Below, in pieces: positions 15,001 through 24,000 of a stretch of DNA of 64,000 nucleotides. The first letter of the stretch is position 1; the number at the start of each line of letters is the position of its first letter. The DNA lies in the NCBI RefSeq assembly GCF_056712565.1, contig NZ_CM160072.1. The stretch is one strand, 5' to 3'. The position numbers were made by a program.

Positions 15001-18000
15001 AATTTTTGCCTGCATTTGCCCCATGGATTCATACAGATGCACCGGGAGGTCTTTGACTGCGCCGCCGCTGGAAGGGCCAATAATATTTGGGCACCAGCGA
15101 TACTTAGCAAAACTTTCCGCCAGGTTGGCGGCCAGTAAAAACGAGGTATTCCCCCACAGATAAGACTCATGACTCTGGCTGACATCTTCATGGTAACGGA
15201 AGGTTTTGACAGGGTTTTCATCCGGTGAGTAAGGGTGGCGCAGCAGGAACCGGGGGGCGGTCAGGCCCAGGTAACGGGAATCTTCCGATTCACGCAGGGC
15301 GCGCCAGCGGGAGTAGGCCGGGCCTTCAAAGATGGCACCCGGTTCTTTGATCCCCGGTAACTCTGTCCATGAATCCAGACCGAAAAATTCGGATGATACT
15401 GACGACAGGAACGGGCTGTGCGCCATCGCGCTGACCTGGCTGATATATTTCAGCAGCTTCATATCCGGCGTGGTGTTCTTAAAGGCAAAGTTGCCGATTA
15501 CCGCCGCCACTGGCTCACCGCCAAATTGTCCGTAACCGCTTGAATATACATGCTTGTAATACGCAGACTGCGTGATTTCAGGTGCAAATTCGAAATCATC
15601 CAGCAGTTCTTCCTGAGTGACATTCAGGAAATGGACTTTGATGTTTTCCCGTGTATCCGCGCGTTCAACCAGCAGCTTCAGCGAGCGCAGCAGGGATTCC
15701 AGTTCCTGAAACTCCGGGGCATGAATAATGGCATCCATCTGCCTGCTGGTTCGGGCATCAATATCAGCAATCATGGCGTCAACGGCCAGGATATTGATAG
15801 GTTCAGCGCTACTGTCGCCCTGTAACATGGCGGCAATAAAGGCGCTCACGCCCTGGCGGGTGATATCGTAGCTTTCTGATTTAGGCTGGACGCGGGTTTG
15901 CGCCATGATTTCATCAAGCAGAGATGGGGGCGCGGCGGTTTGAGACGCGCTGACGGGAGCAATTTCTTCCTTTACTGACATACTGAATATCCTTCTGTGA
16001 AAATTATTTCTGAACGGCGATACCCAGTTCCTGGATCAGCTGCTCGCGGGTGTCTTCGTTTTCCAGTAGCGCCTGAAGTTGTGCGCGGAAGGCTGGAATA
16101 TTGCCTAGTGGAGACTTAAGTGCGACTAGGGCTTCACGCAATTCGAGCAGACGTTTTATTTCTGGTACCTGGCTGGCAATATGGTCAGGAGAAAGGTCAT
16201 CCATAGATTTGACTTTCAGGTTGACGTACATTTGCTCATTGGGAGCGTCACTGAGTTCAGCCGGAACAACAAACTCCCGTTCAATGTCAGCTTCTGAAAT
16301 GACTGCGTTGAGGTTATAGCGGTTGATAGCAATGGCAGTTCGCTCATCCAACGGCGTGTTATCTGGTTTCCCTTTCAGATTGCCGGTGATCAATAAATTC
16401 AGCGGCAATTCGATATCAGCAGCCACCCCATCAACTTTTGGTGTATACCGAACGCTGATTCTTTCTTTCGGCGCGACACTGCCGCCATTGTTGTTCATTT
16501 TGCTCATAAAAATGTTCCCGTTCAGGCCATGAGCACAGCATTTTCGTACTGCATACAAATACCGACAATACCGTTTCAGTGGCAGTTAGATAATGTAACC
16601 TTCCTTCTGTTGTGATCGGTATTCTACTCATGAAATAAAACATTAAAAGAACTATTTATATTTTTGAAAGAGATGTATCCTTCATTATTAATACATAAGA
16701 GTTAAATCAATTTGGTATTTATAGACTTAGTGAATATGATTTTACGGCTAATAAAGTTACATAATGCATTGATTTATATGTGTTTATTAAGTTGATTAAT
16801 AAGTTTTATGTATGGTTTTATAAATAAATTAATTAATTGCTAGAAATACATCATAAGAAATTCCTTTAAGGAATATCTTAATTGCGTGCCGGAACGATTG
16901 TGAAGTAAGTGTTGTAATGATTGATTTTTGAAGAAATTGTAGGTTTTTATGGGGGTAAGGATACGTTATGGATAATTCTACTGTTGATGTTGATATATTT
17001 TTAGCTTATGTAATCGTGTTCTGAAATTGACTAAAAATATATTTAAACACCATAAAAGAGTTTTTCGGTAGGTGCTAATTACGTGTGCCTGTAACTCGAA
17101 TAAAGAAAAGGGTGTGGTTCCTGATGTGAGCCGCATCACACTCTAACCTGTCGGGGATTAACGACGGGTTGTTCGTAAAACAGCAGTTGATAATTTCACA
17201 AGGAGTTCATAAATGCCAACCCCATGTTACATTTCAATTACAGGTCAGACCCAGGGGAACATCACTGCCGGTGCTTTCACCGCAGATTCTGTCGGCAATA
17301 TCTACGTGCAGGGACACGAAGATGAAATGCTGGTGCAGGAGTTTCTGCATAACGTTACTGTTCCAACCGATCCGCAGTCTGGTCAGCCTTCCGGGCAGCG
17401 TGCTCACAAACCGTTCATTTTCACCGTGGCGCTGAACAAAGCCGTTCCGCTGCTGTACAACGCGCTGGCCTCCGGTGAAATGCTGCCGAAAGTGGAGCTG
17501 CACTGGTGGCGTACCTCTGTTGAAGGCAAGCAGGAGCACTACTTCACCACACGTCTTACTGACGCGACGATTGTGGACATGAACCTGCATATGCCGCACT
17601 GCCAGGACCCTGCACAGCGTGAGTTTACGCAATTGCTCGCAGTATCACTGGCCTACCGTAAGGTTGAGTGGGAGCACATCAAATCCGGTACTTCTGGTGC
17701 CGATGACTGGCGTGCACCGCTGGAAGCATAAATCTGAGTCAACAACATCCTGCCTCCGTGCAGGATGTTGTTTTTGTACGTGTAAAAAATGAGTGTCAGT
17801 AAGGAGTTACGCTTTCATGAGGGAGATGGTGGATGCCGGAAACCCGGGCGGTAGCGTACCTGAAAATGTAAAGATGAGTGTAACGCTGCACTGGCACCCT
17901 TTGCTGCATGGTGGGAATCATTTGGTCCGTGAATGAATCAGGGAGGTCATTATGTCCTTAAAAGGTCTTCGCTTTACGCTGGAGGTTGACGGCCAGGAGC

Positions 18001-21000: not shown

Positions 21001-24000
21001 TTAACAATACCTGATTTTTTTGGAATGAAAGAAGGAGTGCTGAGTTGTATTATTCCTGAATGTATAGGGAAAAAATATTATGGGTAACTATCATATCGGG
21101 GATGGTGAATGTAGATTTAGAGTCGTGTGTTCTTCACCAGATGTATGTGAAGTAGGAGGTTACAAGGTTCCTTTTGACAGTTACCAGACTTTAGATAGTG
21201 AAAGACAGTACAGTTCAACGGTATGGGCGCGTGGATGCAGAGCTTTAAATGTTGGTTCAGTGATTGCTGGAACTCAAAGTAATGCCGGTAAAGGTGTCAT
21301 ATCCGGTACATCTCAAGGAACGGGTGACTGTGTTATTTTAACGGGAAGTCCGACTGTAACAATAGAAGGGAAACCTGTTGCTTATCATGGTTCAGTTGTT
21401 GGGATTAATAACCACAACTGCCTTGGTAAATTGTATACCAAAATAAAATCACCAATGATTTCTGTCATTGATAGAACTTTTAATTATGAAAGGACTGCTG
21501 AAGTAATACACGATTTACTGCTTCTGAAGGATCTCCTCTCTGTTGGTAATATTTTTGACGGAGATATTTCACCTGAGGTTAAAAATGATTTATTTCAAAT
21601 AAAAGATCCTGACCAATCATGGGGGGAGTTTTTTTCAATAAAGAATATCAGAGAATCTCTCAGGAATGGTATTGAAGGAGATAAATCTCAGATCAGAGAA
21701 TGGTTTGGAGAGAACACACTTACTCAAATGGGGAATGGAGCAATCACCACTTTACATGGTGTGGCGGATTTAGCCTTAGTTACATTCGATGCTCTGTTAG
21801 ATACGGCAACGGCAACGGTTGCTTGCCCGATAGGCGAAGATGGGTTATGTGAACAGGCAAATATAAATTTAAATGAAAAAGAACAGGCTTTATTTAATAT
21901 TAGTAATTCATTGATAAATGGGCAAGCATGGGATGCACTTAAAAAAATGATAATGGATACAAATAATGGTGATCAGATTGCTCTGGTGCATTTTGCCAGC
22001 TTTTTATGGGGCTTTATGATACCCGCAAAAATACCAGAAGAAAATATCTCTGGGAAAGTATTTGTAGAGCCAGTAGTTTTAGAAGGTGGTGCTGGTGGCA
22101 ATTGGACAGTATTTGATGAGGTTTTAGATTCAAATGTAATAAAGCAATTGACTTTAACAGGCTGTGGAGCGGCCTGTGGGGAAATGTTGCTTAGGGATAG
22201 GTATATTTTTGTCACGCAAAATGTAATTGGAACAGAATTAACATCTATGACGTCGCTGGCAAACAAGCTTAATAAATTTGATGTCGGCTGGGAAGGGAAT
22301 GCAGTGAGCGAATCTAGTTTATATGCCCTCAGTAATACTGGTTCATGGGGAGCAATGATGTGGGATTCTGGAAGTAAAGTAGGGCATTGGGTACTTGTTA
22401 AGGGTGTTGATGATGCTGGGAATGTGATAATATATGATCCATATCAAGGGAGTCGATATCTGATGACTGAACAGGAATTTAAGGAGGTATGGAATGGGCA
22501 TAGTGTTTACAAACCATAATATTGATTTGTTATCGGTTGAATTTGATGAGATTACAAAAAATTGTAATTACACTTTTAGTGTAGATGGAGAGACGGCTAT
22601 CTTTACTGCTAGAATATCAATAATAAGAAATATAAAGGGAATTAAATATAGCGAAGAACTTGATAAATTTATAATGTCAATAATGCCATTGCAGCCTAAA
22701 GTATCAAAAATTTTGGGAGGTGTTACTTGGGATTGTATTTGTGGTAAGGAAGTTGGATTTCCTGTGAGATTAATTGGTAAGTGAAGGGTGGTGAGGTATT
22801 TCTATATTTTTTTCGTGAAAGTCTTTAAAACTGAAATTATCTTGTTGGGAGCCCAAGGTGAGATCATAAAACGTATTATTTTATAAATATTGTTATGCAG
22901 GGAAAGGTCAAGTAATGCTGCTTTTTTGTACTAAATAATTCGCATTTTATGTTCAATAATTGAGGTGTTCCTTATTACCTAAAGCTGTTTTTCATTGCTT
23001 ATACATGATCAAATACTCATTGCCTAATTAAGGGGGACAAAATGGAACTTAAAAAATTGATGGAACATATTTCTATTATTCCCGATTACAGGCAAGCCTG
23101 GAAAGTGGAACATAAATTGCCAGATATTCTATCTGTTAACTATTTGCGCCGTTATTTCTGGTGCATAATGCTGGGAAGATATAGAGGATTTGGGGAAACA
23201 CATCTCGATTTTTTGAAGTGATATGGTGATTTTGAAAATGGTATTCCTGTTCACGATATCATTGCCAGAGTTGTATCCTGTATCAGTCCTGCAAAATTTC
23301 ATGAGTGCTTTATTAACTGGATGCGTGACTGCCATTCCTCAGATGATAAAGATGTCATTGCAATTGATGGAAAAACGCTTCGGCACTCTTATGACAAGAG
23401 TCGCCGCAAGGGAGCGATTTATGTCATTAAAATCCGTCTTCATATTATTTGCGATGTCCCTGATGAACTTATTGATTTCACGTTTGAATGGAAAGAGCTG
23501 AAGAAATTATGCATGGCAGTCTCCTTTCGTTCAATAATAACAGAACAAAAGAAAGAGCCAGAAATGACGGACAGATATTATAGCATTTCTGCTGATTTAA
23601 CCGCAGAGAAGTTCGCCACAGCGAACCGAAATCACTGGTACGTGGAGAATAAGCTGCACTGGCATCTGGACGTGGTAATGAATAAAGACGACTGCAAAAT
23701 AAGAAGAGGAAATGCAGCAGAATTATTTTCAGGGATACGGAAGATCGCTATTAATATTTTAACGAAAGATAAGATACTCAAGGCAGGGGCAAGATGTAAG
23801 ATGTGAAAAGCAGCTGCGGACAGAGACTACCTCGCGTCAGTCCTTGCGGGGGCGGGCTTTCGTATTCTTGCTCTGCAAGGGATGATAAAAAGTGCAACTT
23901 TATTCCACGCAGCTATTTAGACAGCGTACAGTAAACAAACGAAAGTTGTTATTTCAATGGTCAGGGCAAGAGCATGAAGTGTTTACTACACACTATGCTC

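Follow-up and report, generated by a model that had tools for sequence, protein, structure and literature searches.

A T6SS-1 cargo cassette of extraintestinal Escherichia coli encodes the published toxin Cpe1 and its immunity protein Cpi1, with a possible CDI-type cytoplasm-entry domain within the toxin

The Cpe1-Cpi1 effector-immunity pair was characterised in E. coli ATCC 11775 (Song et al., PLoS Biol 2025, PMC12136450). In the published account, Cpe1 inactivates both bacterial type II topoisomerases irreversibly, by proteolysis. In GyrB the cut falls between G101 and G102, in ParE between G97 and G98, at the Gly-Gly of the motif LHAGGKF; the C362A mutant is inactive, and the catalytic triad is seen in the crystal structure (PMC12136450). 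[quoted passage not shown] Cpi1 rescues cells from the toxin and blocks substrate binding at a hydrophobic exosite; inhibition is competitive, with a Kd for Cpe1 of ~9 nM for Cpi1 versus ~340 nM for ParE (PMC12136450). A protein named Tsap had been described in strain RS218 in 2023, in a paper that focused on engineered peptides and reported neither a target nor a mechanism of immunity (Lu et al., Microbiol Spectr 2023, PMC10434152).

Two further systems are close to this pair. StbD-CT of Citrobacter rodentium (PDB 8SSK) is a C39 peptidase toxin of the CdiA type, and it also inactivates both GyrB and ParE at their Gly-Gly motif (10.64898/2026.05.07.723447). YajC dependence and self-cleavage have been demonstrated for StbD-CT only, and the same 2026 preprint proposes YajC-dependent entry for Cpe1 (10.64898/2026.05.07.723447). 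On the delivery side, DUF2169 proteins let PAAR-like (DUF4150) domains cap VgrG, and the two prolines of a PIPY motif contact DUF2169 (PMC11883445).

The window analysed here, a stretch of 64,000 nucleotides, carries the following genes at the locus in question:

17213..17731, plus strand: hcp (TssD), T6SS tube protein; TIGR03344, E 3.4e-62, 209 bits against a cutoff of 58.9; Hcp family protein in RefSeq
17952..19934, plus strand: vgrG (TssI), spike protein; TIGR03361, E 1e-180, with the gp27/gp5 core at residues 8-519
20041..21087, plus strand: DUF2169 accessory (putative chaperone) gene; PF09937, E 7.8e-72, residues 27-320; match to the DUF2169 structure PDB 8VTH, E 1e-14
21080..22519, plus strand: cpe1 (= tsap), 479 aa; matched by Pfam, PDB 9L5U chain A and PDB 8SSK, and named cpe1 in RefSeq
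22494..22784, plus strand: cpi1, 96-aa immunity protein; identical to PDB 9L5U chain C, "Cpi1"

The gene order is vgrG, DUF2169, cpe1, with hcp and a full tss gene set directly upstream. The earlier note had drawn the open reading frames within 17952-22784, including 21080-22519 and 22494-22784, at exactly these coordinates, and in a near-identical genome the RefSeq CDS boundaries agree for vgrG, the DUF2169 gene, the toxin gene and the 96-aa frame. The DUF2169 gene and cpe1 overlap by 8 nt. Between cpe1 and cpi1 the overlap measures 26 nt, and a ribosome-binding site (AAGGAGG) stands 6 nt 5' of the cpi1 ATG at 22494, both as the note had them. Its description of an AT-rich tri-gene unit downstream of hcp-vgrG, with an adaptor gene between vgrG and the toxin, also holds: the three cargo genes have G+C contents of 0.37, 0.39 and 0.31 against a window mean of 0.486.

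The drop in G+C sets in around 19500, still within the 3' end of vgrG, where codons 1-520 have a G+C of 0.587 and the tail has one of 0.435. The AT-rich C-terminal ~140 aa of VgrG co-occurs with the cargo cassette, the segment 19450-20040 being found at a coverage of at least 80% in 300 genomes versus 299 for the cargo genes, and the VgrG C-terminal segment is probably part of the same cassette as Cpe1. The full module is present in 299 of 5,426 complete E. coli genomes (~5.5%), mostly of extraintestinal pathogenic lineages. The module is almost certainly a T6SS-1 cargo cassette of B2-type extraintestinal E. coli, encoding Cpe1 (= Tsap) and Cpi1. A promoter and terminator scan of 16400-23300 gave no convincing internal terminator (7 found versus 5.1 expected from shuffled controls), and the region is probably one transcription unit. 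Farther downstream, a 167-aa frame (24035-24538) has no match in Pfam, NCBIfam or PDB and no sign of membership in the cargo module. A remnant in O145:H28 was considered as an in-frame VgrG-C39 fusion ("specialised VgrG"); this was rejected, as the truncated vgrG enters the remnant out of frame and meets a stop after 17 codons.

The toxin and its immunity protein are already known, having been published in 2023-2025 with crystal structure and target; this is not a new effector. Over residues 337-479 the toxin matches PDB 9L5U chain A without a single difference (E 2.6e-94). The 96-aa protein, proposed in the earlier note as the cognate immunity protein, is identical over residues 1-96 to chain C, deposited as Cpi1, and carries the interface residues I47, M61, M64 and K72. 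Its identity came solely from the PDB sequence search, which also matched the StbI/CdiI immunity protein 8SSM_C, though less strongly (E 6e-9). In ATCC 11775 the genes lie in the same order at this same locus, flanked by the T6SS-1 core genes and yafV-ivy-fadE, and there is one nucleotide difference over 19900-23000 (3.1 kb). The sole amino-acid change in the full-length effector is V303 here versus E303 in ATCC 11775; it falls in the entry-like domain and beyond the crystallised segment. Within vgrG, a 156-nt patch holds 22 substitutions relative to ATCC 11775. The published residue numbers (C362, L387, M390, A408, M426, W428, V434) fit the protein exactly. No observation speaks against the identification. 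Tsap (gene 1835 of ExPEC RS218) has the same coding length of 1437 bp and the same layout (PAAR 1-324 bp, middle 324-1041 bp, C39 1041-1437 bp), and its source peptide WDALKKMIMDT is found at Cpe1 residues 284-294; by this published layout and peptide, rather than by the RS218 sequence, Tsap is the same protein as Cpe1.

Cpe1 is divided as follows:

residues 15-115: PAAR-like domain; PF13665 Tox-PAAR-like (formerly DUF4150), E 1.4e-11, model positions 2-107 of 108
residues 116-187: unique linker
residues 188-322: putative CDI-type cytoplasm-entry domain, with the C249/C257 pair
G336-G337|A338: GG|A linker
residues 338-479: C39 papain-like peptidase, with C362, H436 and D453

Both terminal domains had been anticipated. 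The PAAR-like N-terminus was recovered by PF13665. At the C-terminus, PF03412 Peptidase_C39 matches residues 352-474 (i-Evalue 1.2e-5, 25.6 bits, model positions 3-124 of 133); the score is modest for a sequence match, and the published structure confirms the fold. The Cys, His and Asp stand in papain-like order at the motifs that had been singled out: C362 in GCGAACGEML (from residue 361), H436 in GHWVLV and D453 in IYDPYQG, the last two numbers being read from the sequence here and not quoted from PMC12136450. All six residues of the hydrophobic concave exosite (L387, M390, A408, M426, W428, V434) are present. What the earlier note had overlooked is the middle domain (residues 188-322), a homologue of a CDI cytoplasm-entry domain.

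That note had called the genes a candidate novel effector-immunity pair with an enzymatic target not assignable from sequence, a reading that now has practically no probability left. Database annotation leaned its way: an NCBIfam scan of the toxin, immunity and DUF2169 proteins gave no family, the 96-aa protein has no Pfam family either, and many RefSeq records still read "PAAR-like domain-containing protein" and "hypothetical protein". The missing NCBIfam families mirror the library, not novelty. Toxin domain and immunity protein are, residue for residue, those of the crystallised Cpe1tox-Cpi1 complex; in newer RefSeq records the genes are called cpe1 and cpi1, and the target (GyrB/ParE) and mechanism are in print (PMC12136450). 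So are the experiments that the note proposed, performed on the same protein: toxicity assays with the downstream frame present or absent, the Cys-to-Ala mutant and T6SS competition (PMC12136450). It is scarcely more probable that Cpe1 is a membrane-active, bacteriocin-like "antimicrobial peptide" effector, in the framing of the Tsap work, or a housekeeping double-glycine leader peptidase. Membrane-disrupting peptides were indeed derived from Tsap residues 284-294, but they are engineered cationic variants and not a natural product, and upon expression only the C-terminal C39 portion of Tsap was toxic (PMC10434152). Similarly, although the nearest structural relatives of the toxin domain are ComA and LahT (PMC12136450), no ABC transporter domain is fused or nearby and no double-glycine peptide precursor lies nearby. 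Under both readings it would be hard to place a toxicity that needs C362 and is blocked by Cpi1 (PMC12136450).

More weight, while still unlikely, belongs to the view that Cpe1 kills mainly or additionally via substrates besides GyrB and ParE, topoisomerase cleavage being real yet insufficient for toxicity. Cleavage-resistant GyrB and ParE variants did not protect in co-expression or competition assays; this failed rescue has a simpler account, however, because the endogenous wild-type subunits are still cut. Among 8 crosslinked candidates only GyrB and ParE were cleaved in vitro, the full LHAGGKF motif is absent from all other E. coli proteins, the phenotypes copy those of novobiocin, and StbD-CT, an independent homologue, also inactivates the same two proteins at the Gly-Gly motif.

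Cpe1 as a GyrB/ParE peptidase would act through the following steps. Going by what is known of its family, the DUF2169 protein probably keeps the N-terminal PAAR-like domain of Cpe1 fit to cap the VgrG trimer (chaperone role taken from PMC11883445). Sheath contraction would then fire the spike with Cpe1 into a neighbouring Gram-negative cell. By homology to StbD-CT, residues 188-322 may mediate YajC-dependent entry into the cytoplasm in the manner of CDI toxins, and the peptidase may free itself by cutting after G337. The C39 papain-like peptidase, whose activity is published for the identical toxin domain, acts through C362 with H436 and D453. Cleavage of GyrB and ParE abolishes gyrase and topoisomerase IV activity; negative supercoiling is lost and chromosomes do not segregate, and the cells hit filament and stop growing. 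Cpi1, likewise as published, shields the producer and its kin by binding the hydrophobic concave exosite adjoining the active site, competing with the substrate and leaving the catalytic pocket unplugged.

The entry step rests on the resemblance to StbD-CT. The two proteins align over Cpe1 residues 189-477 (E 8e-82), and identity is 38% for the entry domain and 58% for the peptidase. Cpe1 retains the cysteine pair of the StbD-CT entry domain (C249, C257) and the GGAGGNW self-cleavage linker of StbD-CT (G336-G337|A338). A word-indexed protein search with residues 116-336 was uninformative, retrieving nothing but four fragments of Cpe1 itself. An exhaustive search for distant homologues of the entry domain covered 1.84 billion representatives. 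Among the 58 distant representatives found, 35 have a clear VENN 6-9 residues upstream; of the remaining full-length sequences, most show a degenerate VENN, and the representatives are therefore regarded as CdiA-CT regions. Every distant homologue that extends upstream resembles a CdiA-CT, and none in the 1.84 billion representatives has a PAAR-like domain. Where CdiA proteins have VENN, Cpe1 reads ...GEFFSIKN; lacking VENN, Cpe1 is therefore not a CdiA-CT itself, though it carries the entry domain. Whether residues 188-479 are a complete CdiA-CT module (YajC-type entry domain, self-cleaving Gly-Gly linker and C39 toxin) grafted behind a PAAR-like domain is a question on which the evidence is evenly poised.

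The entry domain, if functional, has several consequences. The T6SS would carry Cpe1 only to the periplasm, the inner membrane would be crossed by the CDI route (YajC, proton-motive force), and the peptidase would be released by redox-triggered self-cleavage after G337. Cpe1 would be the only T6SS carrier of this entry domain within the 1.84 billion representatives, and the V303/E303 polymorphism could matter for delivery. The embedded domain makes the route of T6SS-delivered Cpe1 into the cytoplasm directly testable. As for the pair itself, there is no discovery to claim, since the structure, target and immunity mechanism of Cpe1 are all solved; the locus serves as a calibration case for a genome scan, in which a reading of raw sequence correctly recovered a genuine interbacterial toxin's architecture, its catalytic residues and its immunity gene.

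Cpe1 combines features of several described systems. With the PIPY spike tips of P. aeruginosa and V. parahaemolyticus VP1415 (PMC11883445) it shares the gene order vgrG - DUF2169 - DUF4150-effector and the same HMM matches. The probable PIPY position in Cpe1, placed by eye, reads KVPFDSY, with one proline; in this tentative register the second proline would be missing, and the DUF2169 interaction model of other species may therefore not transfer in detail. With StbD-CT, Cpe1 shares the GyrB/ParE Gly-Gly target, and StbI (PDB 8SSM) and Cpi1 are distantly related immunity proteins. The vehicles differ: StbD-CT travels on a CdiA filament after cleavage at VENN, whereas Cpe1 rides the T6SS spike and has a PAAR-like domain and a unique 72-residue linker with no VENN motif. 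Compared with the C39 leader peptidases of ABC exporters (ComA, LahT; PF03412), Cpe1 has no fused transporter, is paired with an immunity protein, and cuts folded essential enzymes in another cell instead of leader peptides.

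The vgrG-linked cargo locus is the published and crystallised Cpe1-Cpi1 system, in which Cpe1 is a T6SS effector with a PAAR-like N-terminus and a C39 peptidase C-terminus, and Cpi1 is its immunity protein. In a PDB sequence search, the 479-aa protein matches chain A of entry 9L5U residue for residue over positions 337-479, and the small protein is identical in all 96 residues to chain C, deposited as "Cpi1". Newer RefSeq records annotate both genes at exactly these coordinates, the larger as cpe1 ("cysteine protease effector protein Cpe1") and the smaller as cpi1 ("cysteine protease immunity protein Cpi1"). 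The pair was characterised in E. coli ATCC 11775 (Song et al., PLoS Biol 2025; PMC12136450), and the residue numbers of that paper all fit, both in Cpe1 (C362; exosite L387, M390, A408, M426, W428 and V434) and in Cpi1 (I47, M61, M64 and K72). In a megablast search of 5,426 complete E. coli genomes, many B2/ExPEC/APEC strains have the 3.1-kb segment at 100% identity, and ATCC 11775 has it with one base changed. Tsap of ExPEC RS218 has the same 1437-bp layout, and the source peptide WDALKKMIMDT lies at Cpe1 residue 284 (PMC10434152); Tsap and Cpe1 are the same protein. The earlier note had proposed a candidate novel effector-immunity pair; the claim of novelty is wrong, the Cpe1-Cpi1 system being already published, while its reading of the overlapping ORF as the cognate immunity gene is borne out by the identity with Cpi1.

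Genes of the hcp-to-cpi1 unit
17213-17731, + strand: hcp (ORF list; NCBIfam TIGR03344, E 3e-62)
17952-19934, + strand: vgrG (ORF list; NCBIfam TIGR03361, E 1e-180, residues 8-519)
20041-21087, + strand: DUF2169 protein, 348 aa (Pfam PF09937, E 7.8e-72)
21080-22519, + strand: cpe1, 479 aa (ORF list; Pfam PF13665 and PF03412)
22494-22784, + strand: cpi1, 96 aa (ORF list; PDB sequence identity)

Upstream of these ORFs is the T6SS core cluster, in divergent orientation. The module layout read from sequence holds throughout: cpe1 overlaps cpi1 by 26 nt and the DUF2169 gene by 8 nt, AAGGAGG stands 6 nt 5' of the ATG at 22494, and G+C is low. The PAAR-like (DUF4150-type) N-terminus is recovered by Pfam as Tox-PAAR-like PF13665, the former DUF4150, over residues 15-115 (E 1.4e-11), and the C39-like domain as Peptidase_C39 PF03412 over residues 352-474 (E 1.2e-5), with the Cys, His and Asp motifs at C362, H436 and D453. 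The 96-aa protein matches no family in Pfam or NCBIfam. DUF2169 genes co-occur strictly with vgrG and DUF4150 "PIPY" domains, and in P. aeruginosa and V. parahaemolyticus these domains cannot make a working spike tip without DUF2169 (PMC11883445). The gene order vgrG-DUF2169-cpe1 fits this pattern, and by analogy Cpe1 would be loaded onto VgrG in a DUF2169-dependent manner. At the position expected by eye for the PIPY motif, Cpe1 has VPFDSY, which contains one proline.

The enzymatic target, which had been considered unassignable from sequence, is published for the identical toxin domain as GyrB/ParE. Cpe1 cuts GyrB at G101/G102 and ParE at G97/G98; both sites fall within the LHAGGKF loop, a conserved element of the ATPase domain. 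As a result, negative supercoiling is lost, nucleoids remain unsegregated, and cells filament without a Z-ring (PMC12136450). Expression of the toxin domain is toxic in E. coli, is rescued by Cpi1 and loses its toxicity in C362A, and T6SS-dependent competition against MG1655 likewise needs C362 (PMC12136450). The fold is papain-like, nearest to the C39 peptidases ComA and LahT; Cpi1 leaves the active site uncovered and occupies an adjacent hydrophobic concave surface, displacing substrate, with a Kd of 8.6 nM compared with 343 nM for the ParE ATPase domain (PMC12136450). Cells with cleavage-resistant GyrB and ParE variants were still unprotected (PMC12136450), so further Cpe1 substrates are possible.

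The three cargo genes (G+C 0.37, 0.39 and 0.31) differ in base composition from the vgrG core (0.587) and the window average (0.486), and the fall from 0.59 to 0.43 occurs within the vgrG 3' end (~19500-20040, vgrG 3' end and spacer). Across the 5,426 complete genomes, the three-gene module is present in 299, chromosomal and single-copy in every case, and is near-invariant (at least 99% identity in 330 of 335 matches). At a coverage of at least 80%, 300 genomes contain the vgrG 3' segment 19450-20040, one more than the 299 that contain DUF2169-cpe1-cpi1; these near-equal numbers indicate that the exchangeable cassette starts inside vgrG, at the G+C drop. The intergenic region 16500-17000, between the divergent tssB and hcp, has a G+C of only 0.29 and is presumably a divergent promoter region. 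Its AT-richness would fit H-NS silencing, given that the T6SS was switched on for the published competition assays only with a Δhns donor (PMC12136450).

A further 36 genomes hold partial matches. In the three sampled, the match takes in the final 28% of the query: cpe1 codons ~314-479 and an intact cpi1. The O145:H28 strain RM12761 has this segment (7001-7767 of the RM12761 locus) near yncG, behind a truncated vgrG with which it is out of frame, and the cpi1 product shares its protein accession with that of Cpe1-carrying strains. The toxin gene has decayed in this remnant, leaving cpi1 as an orphan immunity gene that might shield O145:H28 EHEC strains against Cpe1-carrying ExPEC.

A 15-kb comparison with ATCC 11775 shows 24 differences in the window. 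One of them is at 21987 in cpe1, and 22 cluster in a 156-nt patch of vgrG (19140-19295), which resembles a short tract of gene conversion or recombination with, perhaps, a vgrG paralogue as the donor. In that 15 kb, one base separates the window from the near-identical isolate AF6. The window departs from AF6 after a tRNA-Thr (48538-48613); a phage-like island of ~12 kb (49000-61400; integrase, major capsid, baseplate and regulator genes) lies ahead of the vat autotransporter gene and has a 100% identity match in strain GPEC548. At 33830-36299, a truncated flhA pseudogene adjoins lafU in the annotation of the AF6 record; this is the familiar scar left by the lateral-flagella (Flag-2) cluster. 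Between cpi1 and yafV lies an AT-rich insert (23042-25340), an odd location for the ICE-family gene stranded in it.

Features of the cpi1-yafV insert
23042-23806: ISAs1 transposase, frameshifted
24035-24538: 167-aa ORF without Pfam, NCBIfam or PDB match
24632-25120: PFL_4695-family integrating-conjugative-element protein (TIGR03765, E 1.7e-35)
25146-25340: second ISAs1 fragment

The middle of Cpe1 was searched exhaustively (query residues 116-336) against 1.84 billion representatives, one per 50% identity cluster. Conservation is limited to residues ~188-322 (window 21641-22045), and residues 116-187 have no distant relatives in this set. A VENN motif precedes the match by 6-9 residues in 35 of the 58 distant homologues; 16 matches are N-terminally truncated, and in most of the other seven the VENN is degenerate or a little out of position. 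Only one of the 58 carries a C39 domain and none a PAAR-like domain. Residues ~188-322 are thus predicted to be a modular CDI entry domain, joined elsewhere to many different toxins. Cpe1 is its sole T6SS context within the sampled representatives, although other PAAR-linked carriers could be hidden, since the library consists of cluster representatives, many of them fragments; full-length Cpe1 is itself present as fragments only.

Cpe1 residues 189-477 also align with StbD-CT, the CdiA-type C39 peptidase toxin of Citrobacter rodentium (PDB 8SSK; PDB search, E 8e-82), at 58% identity in the peptidase and 38% in the part before it. The only amino-acid difference from characterised Cpe1 falls within the entry-like domain, where position 21987 is T (V303) in the window and A (E303) in ATCC 11775; StbD-CT has E at the aligned position, as in ATCC 11775. 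In StbD-CT, the pre-peptidase part is reported to mediate YajC-dependent entry into the cytoplasm and to contain a disulfide between Cys70 and Cys77, and the peptidase releases itself under reducing conditions by a cut after a linker Gly-Gly, which intoxication requires (10.64898/2026.05.07.723447). The counterparts in Cpe1 are C249/C257 for the Cys pair and G336-G337|A338 for the processing site. The preprint's authors describe the entry domain and processing site as common to Cpe1 and suggest that it too uses YajC; CDI-type entry and self-cleavage in this T6SS effector have already been proposed (10.64898/2026.05.07.723447).
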